Shown here: piece after piece, positions 57,411-62,856 of the stretch
How the letters are laid out: each line of letters begins with the position of its first letter
How positions within the stretch are numbered: the first letter of the stretch is position 1
From: an uncultured delta proteobacterium
GTDB lineage: Bacteria; Desulfobacterota; Binatia; UBA9968
Assembly (NCBI GenBank): GCA_963804165.1
Contig: CAWDPO010000046.1
Coordinates: 224,001-288,000, forward strand
Reading direction: 5' to 3'
Length of the DNA stretch: 64,000 bases
The notes under the pieces: generated by a model
The model's input: the letters and a program-made list of their open reading frames with translations, nothing else
The model's database searches: none
Told to the model about the DNA's origin: nothing
Made by a program: the position numbers and the translations under genes

Positions 57411-58439
57411 TCACTTCCCCAAGAGATTCTTCATCCTATCGATGGTCTCTCGATCTGAGGTGGTGACTTCTTTAGCGAGAGTCTCCAACTCCTCGCCGCT
57501 CGTCGGATCTATCTCTAGCTTTTTCTTCTTGACGTCGGCCACGACGTCAGCATCGCCGAGGGTCTTTGAGAAAGCCTCGCGCAGGATCTTCACCCGATCT
57601 GGTGGGACGCCTGGAGTCGTAACGATGGGCCGGCCGAATTCGCCGGCAGCCAACACCAGGGTCGCCAAACGCCGGGTCGCTTGGGGCGTCTTATATTCGT
57701 CCATCAATTCGTAGACGGTCGGTACGTCGGCCATTCTCGGATCGCGTTTTTTGCCGGTCTGAACCAGGACTCGAACGAACCCCTTTTTGCGCCAAGTATG
57801 GAACGGCTCACGGGCGAAGAAGCTCGTGACGGTAAAAGCTCGGCAGTGTACCTCTCCTCTTTCCACCGCCAGATCGATTTCTTGTCCGCCTTGGTATCCG
57901 GTGACGATGTTAAACTTAGTGCCGATCGCTTCATTTAAAAGCAGCATGAAGGCATGGGCGAGCCCGCCAGTCCCGGTGGAGCCGCACTTGGGCGGGTCCG
58001 AAGCCTTGGTCACGTCATGGATGGTTTTGAAAGGAGTATCCGCGCGCATATAGAGCAGATTGTACGAACGTTCAAAGCTTCCCAGCCAAGTAAACTTGGC
58101 CCAGTCGAACTGAACCTCCTTTCTGCCGATCAACTGATCGAAATAAAGCGCCGGCAAGAAAATGGCGAAAGTTAAACCGTCCGGCTTGGCGACGTTATAA
58201 ACATAGTTAGCGGCGGTCATGGTGGATGCGCCGGGCATGTTTTGAACGATGATGTTGGGATTTCCTGGAATATACTTGCCCATGTGCTCGGCCAAGATGC
58301 GCGCATAGATATCGTACACGTCGCCCGCGGGGAGTCCCACGATAATTCTTATTGTCTTTCCCGCGAAGAACTGAGTCTGAGCTTGAACGTTGGACACCCA
58401 TAGAAAGAAAAACGTGAACGCGACAGCGATTTTCTTCAT
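57411..58439 (-). CDS. Bug/TctC tripartite tricarboxylate transporter substrate-binding protein
   Basis: FFAGKTI, IPGNP, PDGLT, ERGEV, PGVPPDRV. Confidence 0.9.
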   Translation of the reverse strand: MKKIAVAFTFFFLWVSNVQAQTQFFAGKTIRIIVGLPAGDVYDIYARILAEHMGKYIPGNPNIIVQNMPGASTMTAANYVYNVAKPDGLTFAIFLPALYFDQLIGRKEVQFDWAKFTWLGSFERSYNLLYMRADTPFKTIHDVTKASDPPKCGSTGTGGLAHAFMLLLNEAIGTKFNIVTGYQGGQEIDLAVERGEVHCRAFTVTSFFAREPFHTWRKKGFVRVLVQTGKKRDPRMADVPTVYELMDEYKTPQATRRLATLVLAAGEFGRPIVTTPGVPPDRVKILREAFSKTLGDADVVADVKKKKLEIDPTSGEELETLAKEVTTSDRETIDRMKNLLGK

Positions 58440-58560
58440 GGAATAATCTCCTTCCTTGCGGTCACCGGAAAACCAACGGGGAGAACCAACACTGTCAAGT
58501 TTTTGATTCTGCTATTCGCACACAACATCAGTCGTAATCGACGGGATCTGGGAGAGATAA

Positions 58561-58992
58561 TCATTTTTTCTTGCCGGGTTCCGCTTGGTAACCTTGTTCT
58601 TTCCACTTGCTGACGGGACAAAATGTTGTGCTGGTGAATCCGAGGTCTTCGGCTAGCTTCGCAGCCTGCGAGCTTGATGCTCCGGTGCCTCACGTGAAGA
58701 CGATGTAGGTATCCTTGGAAATCTTTTTCAGATAACCCTCGAGCTGATCCAAGGGAACGTTGATGGCGTCGGGGATGGTTTCTTTTTCAAAATTGGCCGG
58801 CGGTCGGACGTCGATGATCATCACCGTGCCGGCATCAAGTTGCTTCTTGAGCTCGTCGGCCGGCGTCGGTTTGGCGCCGACGGCCCATCTCGTTTTCGGA
58901 TCTACCTCATATTTGCGCTGTTGTTGGGCGAAGGACGACGCGGCAAAGAGTAAAAGTGAGGCAATGGCTAGCTCCACGATCAACGATTTCAT
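58561..58992 (-). CDS. Exported rhodanese-domain protein, probable selenoprotein (in-frame UGA at 58690-58692)
   Basis: Signal peptide, IIDVR, IPDAINVP, IVFT-UGA-GTGASSSQAAKLAEDLGF...W; frame stays open to TGA at 58561; AAAGGAG RBS. Confidence 0.8.
58655..58674 (-). promoter_or_regulatory. Putative bacterial SECIS hairpin
   Basis: AGC-TCGCA-GGC-TGCGA-A-GCT; G-starting apical loop 23 nt after the UGA. Confidence 0.65.
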
Positions 58993-59109
58993 AAATTCTC
59001 CTTTTCAAAGGATCGTTTGGATGGGCGCAGGCTAACCGGAAAAGCTTGCCGTCGTCAATCCCGGGCGTGGTAAGACGCGTCCCTAATTCGAGCCGGGCTT
59101 TTGAAGGGT

Positions 59110-59125
59110 TGGTGCCGGGGGCGGG
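59110..59125 (-). mobile_element. tRNA-Leu-like 3' fragment, putative att site / island boundary
   Basis: CCCGC-CCCCGGC-ACCA = T-stem 3' strand + acceptor strand + ACCA, with no tRNA 5' part. Confidence 0.6.
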
Positions 59126-59529
59126 CCTAAATCTGGATTCTATCTCAGGTAGTTCGTGGGGTCATCGGCGGACGAAAATTTCGGGCGAAATTCCAAATTG
59201 CAGCCACTGATGATCTTCGAACGTGTTCAACGACGTCGACCGTTTGGTAGCACTGGATCGGGTAATTGTCGTGTTGAAAAAACCTGGGCCGGTGGAGGCG
59301 ACGATGAAGTGGGGCGGTCGTCTGAAGCGAACAAGGAAAGACTCTCGCCCCCTTTGGTCTTTTAGGATTAAAGGGATGAATCAGCCGCAGCGTACTTCAA
59401 TGAAATTCCTCTTTATGGCTGCCGCGGCGTGAGCGAAGTCTTGGTTCGGGTAACCATTCTTGAAGTGTCAGTGCAGTATGATCACCAGGACAAAGAGAAC
59501 AGCCTCCGTTCTGGACTCGAAGGGGGATA

Positions 59530-60036
59530 TCACTTTCGAAGTCGACAAGACCTCCGCAGGTGCATATCGACTCCGTGATCATGCAGATTTTGTGGCGTGA
59601 AACTTGTCTCCTCGTAACCACCGTCACGGGTTTCGTATTTAACCACTACCGACTGAATAGTCCACCTTATATCAAAGGCTACGGCTCTATTTCTATCCAA
59701 ATAGTCACCGAGTACACGCAGGCCTGCCGAAAGCTTGTGAGCGTCCAGATCGTCGCTTGAACCTCGTCTTGACCGTCCCTGAGTTTCTAACCGGGTAGTG
59801 TCGGAGTTGGTATAGACTAGAAGTTCCGGGGACCGTTGGGGCGTTGAAACCATTTGATCGGAATCGCCCCTTCCCCAAACCTCACCAGTGACACTCTTTA
59901 GAAAGCTTGGTTCCCAGTTATGCACAACGTATTTTTCGCCAGTTTTTTTTAATGCGAAAGCCTTAATGCGGAGCACCTCTAATGCCTGCCCGATGACTCT
60001 AAGAGATTGGGAGTATGATTTAGTGGTAGGTGCCAT
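59530..60036 (-). CDS. Uncharacterised protein with internal duplication; paralog of 38514-39197
   Basis: LRVIGQALE, AFAL, YVV, LRVLGDYLD, VVVKYET, MHLRRS colinear with the 38514 protein. Confidence 0.75.
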   Translation of the reverse strand: MAPTTKSYSQSLRVIGQALEVLRIKAFALKKTGEKYVVHNWEPSFLKSVTGEVWGRGDSDQMVSTPQRSPELLVYTNSDTTRLETQGRSRRGSSDDLDAHKLSAGLRVLGDYLDRNRAVAFDIRWTIQSVVVKYETRDGGYEETSFTPQNLHDHGVDMHLRRSCRLRK

Positions 60037-60217
60037 CAATAGCCGATCCCCGCCGTATAGAAAGCAATTTGTTTGAATTTGCGAGAAGGCCAGCAACCGC
60101 GGAAGCAAATAGCGTTCTTCAAATCAGTCACGCAGCTTGCCATCTGGGCGCGCAGTTTCCCGCAGAACGTAACAGAGTAATTGGCACAAAATAGAAGAAT
60201 CAGCACGTTGTCTCGAA

Positions 60218-61263
60218 TTACATCCCAGACGTTTTGTCTCGAACCAGGCGCTGAACGTAACATAGACTGTCTCTTGAGTCGAAAACATTCTGGCCGCAAG
60301 TGACTGTTCCCTGGAGCTTACCTGGGCCCGGGAATGCGTCGTCGGTGTTATTGCCTTTGTCGGGACAAAAGCTGCGCCCAATCTGTGATGTTCTGGCACT
60401 GGGTTAAGTTGCCGCCATTTTTTATCACCGGAATCAAGTAGCAACGATTACGGGTCGGCTTTGAACATCGGCTTGAGGTGGCCATTAACGATCGTTTCAT
60501 TCACACCGTTTGCGACATTTCCACAATAGCCAACATCGATTGCGGGCTGGCCCGCGCAATAAGGCAGCTTTTCGAACAGGGCGCGAACCTCATCGCGTGC
60601 TGGCGTTGTCTATTTGATAAGTTTCCCAGCCGCCGGTGCTATTGCCTCCCGACTGGAAATCCAAAATTACAGTCACGATTCGGGCCTTTGCAGAGACCTT
60701 CCACGACTACGATCGGCAGTCCGGGAAGCGCCTGGTTCACAGCAACGGCGCTGACGCTCACATCGGCTGTCGTTCTAGCTGGCTTGCCCAAACAAATTGA
60801 GCAGTGGCGTCAAGAACAGCGGGGATTTCATGGCTTTCGCAGCGCTTCCGCCGTAGGGGTTGGTATTTTCTAATGCCACTCGAGCTCCGTTCGCATTGTT
60901 GATGTTGACTCCTGACGTGGTAAATTCGCCGGTCCCGTTGTCATATTTCACGAGGGTCACGTTCTTTTGATCGATTTGATTGTTAGGACTGTCGAGATAA
61001 TTGTTTCCGGTGCCGGGATTTGTTCCGCCGGGGTTAAACTTTGCCGCTCGGTCTGTAACTGTCGACCAGTTTCCACTCGGGATTGCCGATGCGGCAGCCA
61101 GCGCCGCCGCATCCACGGCCGGCTGACCCTGAGATCGCACATAGGCCAGATGTCCTGTGTCTAATCCCATGCCGACCATGATCAAGAGCAAAACAATCAT
61201 CAGAGTCATGAAGACGAGCGCATAGCCTTGTTGATTTTTTAACGGCTGCATATAAGCCTCCAT
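60218..61263 (-). CDS. TadG-like pilus assembly protein, broken by about five frameshifts
   Basis: QQGYALVF..TM..GLDTG..Y..VDAAALAAA N-terminus; coding-like frames continue (VSVSAVA..LPIVV, GWETY, CYLIPVI, RLVRD) to TAA at 60218. Confidence 0.7.
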
Positions 61264-61267
61264 TGAC

Positions 61268-61786
61268 CTAAGCGGAATAGGGTCCGTAACTGGTCGGAGT
61301 CGTGCAATAATTATTATTTATGTAGGGCTGATATTTGTAGTGCATTTGCGTTCCCCGAGAGATCGTCAGAGTGTTTGGAGCGCTACCGCCAAACAATCGT
61401 ATTAACTGATACATGAAAAATTTGTATTGACCCTGTGCCTTCACTTCGACAAATTCCATACAGGCCGTTCCCGTGTAAAATGTCACCGTGACGGTCTTGT
61501 TTGTCAGGTAGGCTGGCAATCGGCTAATGACTTCTGTTTTCACCGTATCGGCTTCAGCCGAGCTAAAGATTAGGTTGGGAACGTTGCCGCTCTTTTGAAG
61601 TCCGCTGCCGATGCGCGCTCCCTCCCGAGCCGCGGTCTGAATCAGGTTACCCATAAAAAACGAAACACCGAAATCGACGGGTATATACAACGCAATCAGC
61701 AAGAGCGGAGTAATGAGCGAAATCTCGACGATTCCCTGACCTCTTTGATTATTGCGCATCGATCCATTTTCACTCACAGCGTTCAT
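61268..61786 (-). CDS. TadE-like pseudopilin
   Basis: RGQGIVE prepilin cleavage motif, TM helix, AAREGAR. Confidence 0.88.
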   Translation of the reverse strand: MNAVSENGSMRNNQRGQGIVEISLITPLLLIALYIPVDFGVSFFMGNLIQTAAREGARIGSGLQKSGNVPNLIFSSAEADTVKTEVISRLPAYLTNKTVTVTFYTGTACMEFVEVKAQGQYKFFMYQLIRLFGGSAPNTLTISRGTQMHYKYQPYINNNYCTTPTSYGPYSA

Positions 61787-61831
61787 TGGTTGGCCCTCCC
61801 TGTTTTCGCTCGTTCACTTCGAACTCACGCG

Positions 61832-62335
61832 TTAGCATCCCGCTTGCGCCTCCCACCTCATGCGTGTTTGACGCGTGATCGGCGTATCGTTTAAGTTTCC
61901 TGAGACGCCCACCCAATGGAGGAGCTGGTAGAAAAAGAAGTGGTAGGTTCCGGATACCGCGACTGTCACCATCCGGTTGCAATTTGTTCCTATATCAGGA
62001 TCTAGGTTCACCGTGATCGTCGCGGCTGGAAGGAGCGCCGCCGAAATCCTTCCTGCGGTTTCCTTAAATATGTTTCCTGTACAAGAAGGCACGACGCAGC
62101 TGGTCGTTCCGCTAACGAGCGTGCGATCGGCCGACGCGATTCTGGCTCCTTCACGCGCGGCGTTCTGAGCGAGCTGCCCCGTATAGAACGCAAGCCCAAA
62201 ATCTGCCGGTATCCAGGCGACAATCAGCAGGATTAGAAACGTCAGCGTGAACTCGACCACGGCTTGGCCTGACGAACCGGTTAAACCCATTAGACCCTTT
62301 CGACTTAGAAGCGGGGAAGATGAATCAAGTGACAT
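61832..62335 (-). CDS. TadE-like pseudopilin
   Basis: SGQAVVEF, TM helix, AAREGAR; AAGGAG RBS before ATG at 62335. Confidence 0.88.
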   Translation of the reverse strand: MSLDSSSPLLSRKGLMGLTGSSGQAVVEFTLTFLILLIVAWIPADFGLAFYTGQLAQNAAREGARIASADRTLVSGTTSCVVPSCTGNIFKETAGRISAALLPAATITVNLDPDIGTNCNRMVTVAVSGTYHFFFYQLLHWVGVSGNLNDTPITRQTRMRWEAQAGC

Positions 62336-62856
62336 CTTTCGAACTCCTTCTGCTTTCCGCACATTTATTGTTTTGCTACTGTCGCCCGCTGTGATTGAGC
62401 AACACTGTTGCTATTTACGGGCCGTGAGACAGCGATGACGAAACCGACATTCGAATTGACATTGCCGTCATTGCGCCGTCCGATTTCGTGTAGAGAGACC
62501 TGGCGGACGAACAGAATTGCTCTGTTCATTTCTGGCAAAACTAAATGGCAAAAGACTTTTGCGGCAAAGCGTGATGTGAATAGGAAGAAACTGGGATGCT
62601 CGTAGTCAATTCGTGTTGATAGTTCTTTTGGGAGTATGTCAGGTGCTTAAACGTCAAGACATGACGTGCAGGAGATTGCAGTGCGATCAGGCGGCGTCTA
62701 CGACGACTCCAGAAGAACAGCAAAGCATTCAAACCCCACGGTCAAAGAGAAATGCTGCGCCTAAGGGTTTGGGATGTTAAAAGTCCGAGCACTGCTGGAG
62801 TTCCCTTTATTTTTGGGAACAATGTGAGAGAAAAAATATACTTGTATGACTTTATG

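Follow-up and report, generated by a model that had tools for sequence, protein, structure and literature searches.

A predicted selenocysteine-containing rhodanese, probably exported, with a sequence-frozen SECIS element in an uncultured delta proteobacterium

Does a rhodanese gene that appears to stop exactly at its catalytic codon nevertheless encode a complete enzyme? This question is raised by a locus on the minus strand of contig CAWDPO010000046.1 (assembly GCA_963804165.1) of an uncultured delta proteobacterium of the Binatia, from which a stretch of 64,000 nucleotides (nt; contig positions 224,001 to 288,000, here called the window and numbered from its first letter) was analysed. Under translation table 11, the open reading frame (ORF) at 58690..58992 (minus strand, as are all features of the gene given below) encodes 100 residues with the C-terminal sequence ...KDTYIVFT and then meets a TGA. 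An earlier reading of the sequence (the original prediction) had placed this UGA at the catalytic position of a rhodanese, where it would encode selenocysteine (Sec, U), and had proposed that the frame beyond it completes a rhodanese fold of 143 residues. Both claims are borne out by the analysis described here: the Pfam match crosses the TGA, relatives with cysteine (Cys) align it there, and the same frame is open to 58564. We thus regard the gene at 58564..58992 as a genuine selenoprotein gene whose codon 101 is predicted to specify Sec, with a probability of roughly 0.9 on the sequence data in hand.

Reading the TGA (codon 101, 58690..58692) as U adds 42 codons, GTGASSSQAAKLAEDLGFTSTTFCPVSKWKEQGYQAEPGKKK, before a second in-frame TGA at 58563..58561. 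This second UGA (58561..58563) is the true stop codon and has no selenocysteine insertion sequence (SECIS) element behind it. The full coding sequence of 143 codons (58564..58992) specifies a single rhodanese domain preceded by a signal-peptide-like N-terminal segment, as supported by translation, Pfam, an AlphaFold2 model and orthologues that are colinear with the 143-residue frame over its whole length, and a Shine-Dalgarno-like AGGAG (58998..59002) lies 5 nt upstream of the ATG at 58992. The Pfam Rhodanese domain (PF00581) spans the TGA, covering residues 45-121 with an E-value of 1.3e-16 and 61.3 bits against a cut-off of 22.2. The codon falls at the start of the loop U-G-T-G-A-S-S, where full-length homologues align Cys and where TGA and TGC alternate among relatives.

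In the databases this subfamily is largely seen in shortened form. Among the 120 best matches from a collection of 5.8 billion proteins, 106 stop right before the catalytic codon at about 100 residues (103 by pattern, together with P0027, P0065 and P0116), and these shortened proteins are named '3-mercaptopyruvate sulfurtransferase SseA' or 'rhodanese-like domain-containing protein'. Eight read on with Cys (LVFTCGTGRTSSQAAKLAEELGF...), two Joint Genome Institute (JGI) calls (P0003 and P0004) translate the catalytic codon as W and continue, three are frameshifted, and one (P0047) has a different, ordinary rhodanese C-terminus. A pattern-free HMMER search of 1.84 billion representatives found 11 more distant full-length single-domain relatives with 31-59% identity, all of which have Cys at the catalytic column.

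At the level of genomes, 15 of 61 related genomes matched (E <= 1e-10), with one TGA inside 14 of the 16 matched places, and 400 other sampled genomes of the phylum gave no match at E <= 1e-12, a result that speaks for that sample only. A species-level scan of one genome per GTDB species yielded 35 loci, in metagenome-assembled genomes (MAGs) labelled 'uncultured delta proteobacterium', Candidatus Binatia, Thermodesulfobacteriota, Syntrophobacter sp., Acidobacteriota, Vicinamibacteria and Terriglobia, and the identity of its TGA forms to the query goes down to 44%. A metagenome scan, using a Cys-form query and peptide patterns outside the hairpin region, gave a further 50 loci, of which L074-L110 were analysed; these, the species-level loci and the window's own locus make up a set of 73. 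The catalytic codon is TGA in 58 of them (47 distinct 72-nt segments), TGC in nine and CGA in three; of the other three, two are too short to anchor, and L071 was mis-anchored by the pattern and has TGC in another alignment. The original prediction had asked whether the codon might prove to be TGC or TGT and whether homologues might end at it. TGA recurs in 58 loci from independent assemblies, and the frame is open and conserved beyond the codon, with the Cys forms placing their Cys on the TGA.

Selection beyond the UGA was assessed using uncorrected Nei-Gojobori proportions of synonymous (pS) and nonsynonymous (pN) differences in 496 pairwise comparisons among 32 Sec loci from the species-level scan. 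Codons -30 to -1 before the TGA have a pS of 0.694 and a pN of 0.220 (pN/pS 0.32), and codons +1 to +37 after it a pS of 0.605 and a pN of 0.197 (pN/pS 0.33), or 0.741 and 0.241 with the same ratio of 0.33 once the hairpin codons described below are removed. Purifying selection is thus equal before and after the TGA, and the truncated product is therefore not the functional one. Furthermore, all 32 Sec loci keep the frame after the TGA open as far as a common end, whereas the other two frames contain stops in 23 and 22 of the 32. Contigs that stem from close relatives in three RNA-library runs extend across the TGA, and none is listed with a change at 58690-58692; this is a weak hint of expression, since relatives' contigs in an RNA library do not prove transcription. 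The highest share of the window's words in any sequencing run was 0.17.

What, then, would direct Sec to this codon? Downstream of the UGA lies a 20-nt hairpin, AGCUCGCAGGCUGCGAAGCU, at 58655..58674, which starts 15 nt after the UGA, has the core AGCUCGCA-GGC-UGCG-A-AGCU and overlaps codons 107-113 (S S Q A A K L). Its shape, ((((((((...)))).)))), comprises eight pairs, one bulged A and a GGC loop at 58666..58664 whose first G lies 23 nt after the UGA, with an RNAfold energy of -7.7 kcal/mol. These 20 nt are invariant in 32 distinct Sec sequences, flanked by variable positions, and the RNAalifold consensus falls exactly on them. Codons +6 to +11 (AGC TCG CAG GCT GCG AAG) are each represented by one codon in 32 of 32 Sec loci, whereas every other degenerate column from -30 to +37 uses at least two synonymous codons in the same loci, and pS at the hairpin codons is 0.111 against about 0.7 elsewhere. 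The exact 20-mer is present at 57 of 58 TGA loci and at none of the nine Cys loci, which differ from it at 1-5 positions even though most of them encode the same SSQAAKL peptide. Because the 20-mer is exact in TGA forms and altered in Cys forms, the constraint is tied to the TGA and not to codon usage. Two of the Cys forms, L061 and L078, keep 19 of the 20 positions, the single change in L061 turning Gln into Glu, and by their sequences look like recent Sec-to-Cys conversions. On this comparative evidence, the 20-nt hairpin is the predicted SECIS element of the gene.

A SECIS-like hairpin with a G-starting loop 23 nt past the UGA had been part of the original prediction. The relatives confirm such an element, with a conserved GGC loop at +23, but it is the loop that sits there, the element itself starting 15 nt after the UGA. 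Another hairpin that fits the same wording, GGCUGCGAAGCUAGCC (-5.1 kcal/mol), starts at the +23 base; it is not conserved, having its 3' arm on third positions of CTN and GCN codons that vary among orthologues, and was rejected. Likewise set aside was a second copy of the 20-mer in the genome, a single match with two mismatches that is antisense to an unrelated open frame.

Sec insertion also depends on dedicated machinery, for which the original prediction had suggested looking in the genome, and all of it was found. The assembly (7.5 Mb, 46 contigs, 81% completeness) contains a tRNA-Sec at C24:201780-201870 (76 bits against a cut-off of 47, ARAGORN anticodon TCA), as well as selA (610 bits), selB (357 bits) and selD (385 bits), all four scoring above curated cut-offs. 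The genes selD, selB and selA adjoin on one strand of contig C16 (G000:C16:139949-144339; L009, L010 and L018). selD itself has one in-frame TGA in the context KAAG*AAKLGP and is therefore a Sec-type SelD, while neither selA nor selB has internal stops, so that TGA is not a sense codon genome-wide. Comparison of the selD SECIS of this genome with the rhodanese SECIS showed no clear shared hairpin motif.

What this analysis shows is the signature of recoding, the constraint on the SECIS, the presence of the Sec machinery and the fold. For the fold, the AlphaFold2 model (mean predicted local distance difference test score, pLDDT, 79.4; predicted template modelling score, pTM, 0.67) shows the alpha/beta pattern of a rhodanese, with strand 96-100 (YIVFT), U101, helix 104-116, strand 120-124 and Cys125 in order. 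The best Foldseek matches in the PDB are all rhodanese domains, namely BH2092 (3nhv), 3gk5, TSTD1 (6bev), PRF (5ve3) and YgaP, and a profile search of PDB sequences returned 1yt8, 6bev and PspE 2jtq. No NCBIfam model passed its cut-off, leaving the subfamily uncovered there. The original prediction had singled out a non-basic active-site loop, but the family as a whole does not show it: 13 of 32 Sec orthologues have Arg at position +4, and the loop in Acidobacteriota reads U-N-T-G-R-R-S.

A second residue of interest is Cys125 (codon 58618..58620), in a T-F-C-P motif 24 residues after Sec, which conservation and the model mark as a candidate selenenylsulfide partner. It is conserved in 32 of 32 Sec loci (TGT in 18, TGC in 14), a set partly chosen by the TFCP pattern, and is also present in all 11 full-length single-domain relatives from the pattern-free search. 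Rhodaneses pair the catalytic strand with the strand that follows the active-site helix; given this topology, Sec101 and Cys125 should sit at neighbouring strand ends, and a selenenylsulfide bond between them is a reasonable inference. At the other end of the protein, residues 1-22 (MKSLIVELAIASLLLFAASSFA, 58927..58992) form a putative signal peptide of the general secretory (Sec) pathway, with likely cleavage after SFA. By eye, these residues contain neither a twin-arginine motif nor a lipobox Cys. The corresponding N-termini of orthologues vary in sequence, yet they are always hydrophobic and end in a small-x-small pattern before the conserved QQ..Y.VDP, and in the AlphaFold2 model residues 1-22 are a low-confidence helix.

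Taken together, these features suggest the following course of events. At UGA101, the 20-nt SECIS hairpin would recruit SelB carrying Sec-tRNA(Sec), Sec would be inserted and translation would proceed to the 143-residue pre-protein. The N-terminal 22 residues would then act as a signal peptide for the general secretory pathway, giving a mature periplasmic single-domain rhodanese of about 121 residues in which the selenolate is the presumed nucleophile of the active-site loop. The selenolate could take sulfane sulfur or selenium from thiosulfate, polysulfide or a persulfide, forming an Se-S(-S) intermediate from which the atom would be handed to an acceptor. Cys125, at the end of the neighbouring beta-strand, would probably close a selenenylsulfide with Sec101, which may protect or reset the site in the oxidising periplasm. 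In this scheme it is export, sulfur transfer as the activity and the Se-S pair that we infer.

A number of observations weigh against reading the locus as an exported Sec-dependent sulfurtransferase. Among the TGA loci, L096 departs from the stem by one mismatch, and three contigs have CGA (Arg) at the catalytic codon with the 20-nt hairpin intact; some lineages have therefore lost Sec without gaining Cys. Folded as a single sequence, the 81 nt around the site are unremarkable (z = 0.14, with 108 of 200 shuffles folding at least as well), and an Rfam scan of 58500-59050 matched no family, returning two chance-level matches (E = 2 and 5.6) far below the gathering score. The invariant stem offers no covariation, so that the structure is supported by synonymous-site constraint only. 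The species-level loci were picked with patterns that include SS[QR]AAKLAE and TFCP, and amino-acid conservation at these motifs in that set is thus partly due to selection of the loci. The signal peptide was judged only by eye, making export a prediction from the protein sequence. Finally, no sulfur or selenium pathway partner is evident among the gene neighbours of the window and the related loci. As to the hairpin, it is the comparison with relatives and not the single-sequence fold that lifts it above chance. In addition, the overlap with a conserved peptide leaves one stem pair (third positions of codons +6 and +11) able to change synonymously on both sides, which explains both the absent covariation and the frozen sequence.

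How does the Sec reading then fare against other explanations? Were the TGA a true stop, the locus would be a pseudogene or would encode a 100-residue rhodanese fragment without a catalytic residue, in agreement with the end of the table-11 ORF, with the length of about 100 residues at which 106 of the 120 best database homologues are called and with a hairpin that is not significant as a single sequence. A true stop is, on the other hand, difficult to reconcile with 42 downstream in-frame codons that no stop interrupts in any of the 32 Sec loci, under a pN/pS of 0.33 compared with 0.32 upstream, and with Cys homologues that carry the same sequence onward. The 100-residue product would, according to the model, be missing a helix and a core strand as well as the catalytic loop, and the 20-nt synonymous-site freeze after the TGA would be left unexplained; we consequently give this explanation hardly any credence. 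It is also highly improbable that the UGA is read as an ordinary residue, be it Trp or Gly under codes 4 or 25, or Cys or Trp by near-cognate suppression, with the conserved nucleotides serving some other role. The JGI calls P0003 and P0004, which give W at the codon, would fit such a reading. However, the gene's own terminator is TGA, the lack of internal TGA in selA and selB implies the standard code, the Sec machinery is complete, and selD has its TGA at a known Sec/Cys site. Furthermore, where homologues look functional, no sense codon other than that for Cys takes the place of TGA. The position of the hairpin and its G-containing apical loop are as expected of a bacterial SECIS, for which Zhang and Gladyshev are said to have given a spacing rule of 16-37 nt in 2005.

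A further alternative accepts Sec in the protein and differs in what the protein does: instead of transferring sulfane sulfur, it might serve thiol/selenol redox chemistry through a U101...C125 couple, as a reductase or sensor, or deliver or detoxify selenium. We consider this possible, although less likely than not. It is favoured by the second Cys, which recurs in all single-domain relatives examined, whether close or distant, and lies where the strand adjacent to the Sec strand ends. The finding, reportedly made by Ogasawara et al. in 2001, that a rhodanese can carry selenium as perselenide points the same way. Relevant passages of PMC9312934 likewise describe predicted prokaryotic selenoproteins as mostly thiol-oxidoreductase-like. 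The closest solved relatives by sequence and fold are, on the other hand, thiosulfate sulfurtransferases and single-domain rhodaneses, and no redox partner gene is conserved nearby. The active-site loop also has the short length of sulfurtransferases, with Ser in place of the Arg that, we assume, marks the Cdc25/Acr2 phosphatase and arsenate-reductase type at that loop position.

A number of unusual variants were noticed among the relatives. The CGA contigs (L042, with the codon at 2649-2651, L089 and L108) are separate records with identical 72-nt surroundings, and in their close relatives L041 and L090 TGA is retained. Judging by the sequences, one lineage seems to have changed recently from Sec to Arg, which should abolish catalysis, and the CGA does not look like a sequencing error. 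In the Cys form L071 (2614-2898, in a MAG labelled Syntrophobacteraceae), an in-frame TAG replaces the Lys codon of SSQAAK (AAG to TAG) and the frame appears to run on past it; a pseudogene, an assembly error or another recoding may be involved. In L049/L030 (G022:C434:1275-1700), an additional in-frame TAA precedes the Sec TGA by five codons (KDA*IVFT*), at a place where others have Tyr; a pseudogene or an assembly error is probable. Another gene copy, L033/L036/L057 (G024:C69, 1130-1545), is split by a frameshift around residue 63-74. Its contig is labelled Verrucomicrobiia, yet the gene is 90% identical to 'delta proteobacterium'/Binatia-type genes, and the contig may thus be mis-binned.

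Two further loci differ in architecture or in distance from the query. The Cys form L061 (2557-3354, in a Candidatus Acidiferrales MAG) lies in an open frame of 265 residues, with an N-terminal extension of about 150 residues that has a signal-peptide-like start of its own ahead of the rhodanese part. L035 (G043:C333:12128-12412) is a distant homologue from another family of the same order, with 38% identity and TGA at the catalytic codon (LVFY*QGGGRAS...); because its downstream sequence differs, it should have a SECIS of its own.

The gene is followed on the same strand by a TctC-family periplasmic binding protein gene (57411..58439) and then by a gene for a family-2 glycosyltransferase. Upstream, a stretch of about 1.8 kb (59000-60775) holds no ORF with a Pfam match, its sole long frame (59530..60108, minus strand, 192 residues) being without a match, and beyond it lie Tad-pilus genes (TadE/TadG-like) at 60775-62362. 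Across the related loci, the only recurrent neighbours are periplasmic binding proteins (TctC or NMT1-like), of which these genomes probably encode many. In one subclade, the neighbours include MmgE/PrpD, an unknown 173-residue protein, an NMT1-like gene and an HpaB gene. A promoter and terminator scan gave consensus-level matches only.

What the locus adds is thus a subfamily of a known kind of protein, the Sec-rhodanese: by its sequences, it is unannotated, systematically shortened in databases, probably exported, and characterised by a second conserved Cys and a sequence-frozen SECIS. In 106 of the 120 nearest database proteins the subfamily is reduced to 100-residue fragments that lack the catalytic residue, and a curated selenoprotein model would correct hundreds of soil-metagenome records. 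The fixed sequence makes the 20-nt element a ready probe for the subfamily in metagenomes, and the element itself illustrates cleanly how dual coding can pin a SECIS. The protein adds an apparently exported Sec enzyme to soil lineages in which the use of selenium has been little described. Furthermore, a small protein (about 121 residues when mature) with natural Sec, Cys and Arg variants is useful for asking what selenium gains a rhodanese. Although the finding will be unsurprising to a selenoprotein specialist, it is of use to annotation and supplies a small model in which Sec and Cys rhodaneses can be compared.

Sec-rhodaneses were already known, as the original prediction had noted: in the relevant passages, a 'rhodanese-related sulfurtransferase' is listed among new selenoprotein families of the Sargasso Sea (Zhang, Fomenko and Gladyshev 2005, PMC1088965), eight Sec-rhodanese genes are described in Olavius symbionts (Zhang and Gladyshev 2007, PMC1976440), the family also appears in the Global Ocean Sampling (GOS) list (PMC2398784), and a 2026 review (PMC13188914) distinguishes five rhodanese selenoprotein forms with the motifs UxxS, UxxG, CxU, UxxG and UxxxxU. 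The protein in the window shares with these catalogued forms, as far as their passages describe them, the PF00581 domain, a UGA-encoded Sec in the active-site loop, Cys homologues and a SECIS just downstream. Its U-G-T-G fits the UxxG of forms 2 and 4 in the review's passages, a likeness at the level of the motif (catalogued reference proteins MBM9537886.1 and MCY3690685.1), while the CxU and UxxxxU motifs are absent. The model for form 3 (CxU), NF041203 rhodanese_LYCAU, scores 35.2 bits against a cut-off of 115, and the window protein has F-T before U, without a Cys. In the review, 'signal peptide' and 'periplasm' have 0 occurrences, and the catalogue passages mention no signal peptide, no U-x23-C and no distribution over soil 'delta proteobacterium'/Binatia and Acidobacteriota. 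A literature search on Sec-rhodaneses of Acidobacteria and on periplasmic Sec-rhodaneses found no paper on this subfamily. We therefore put forward, as a tentative and somewhat doubtful proposal, a sixth, uncatalogued form: an exported, single-domain Sec-rhodanese with a U-x23-C selenenylsulfide, common in soil 'delta proteobacterium'/Binatia-type bacteria and Acidobacteriota and mis-shortened almost everywhere. Its SECIS would be frozen to one 20-nt sequence across phyla by overlap with a conserved helix, and the protein might be a periplasmic, selenium-based carrier of sulfane sulfur or selenium.

Among Cys-dependent rhodaneses, PspE of Escherichia coli (NF007627/TIGR02981, PDB 2jtq) is similar in being a small single rhodanese domain behind a signal peptide (putative in our case), and residues 61-121 align with 2jtq in the PDB search (E = 5.6e-10). 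The window protein nevertheless falls outside the PspE family, with scores of 32.1 against a cut-off of 102 for NF007627 and 28.7 against 126.3 for TIGR02981, and differs from PspE in having Sec for Cys, the additional Cys125 and a conserved N-terminal extension of about 20 residues in the mature protein. It likewise falls outside GlpE (NF001195), with 27.5 bits against a cut-off of 102. Sud of Wolinella succinogenes is a periplasmic polysulfide-sulfur transferase, an exported single-domain rhodanese in which one active-site Cys carries sulfane sulfur for a respiratory partner. By this description, Sud would be the nearest functional analogy for a periplasmic sulfur carrier of the kind proposed here; it differs in using Cys instead of Sec, and no polysulfide reductase gene adjoins the gene in the window.

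The hairpin, for its part, can be compared with the SECIS of E. coli fdhF, a short hairpin directly 3' of the UGA and within the coding sequence, with one bulged base and a G-containing apical loop about 20 nt from the UGA. The apex GCA-GG(C)-UGC resembles that of fdhF, whereas the loop has 3 nt (5 nt if the closing A-U pair opens) and the bulged A is on the 3' side. To our knowledge, the freezing of primary sequence across two phyla is unusual for SECIS elements, and it arises here because the element overlaps the conserved peptide SSQAAKL.

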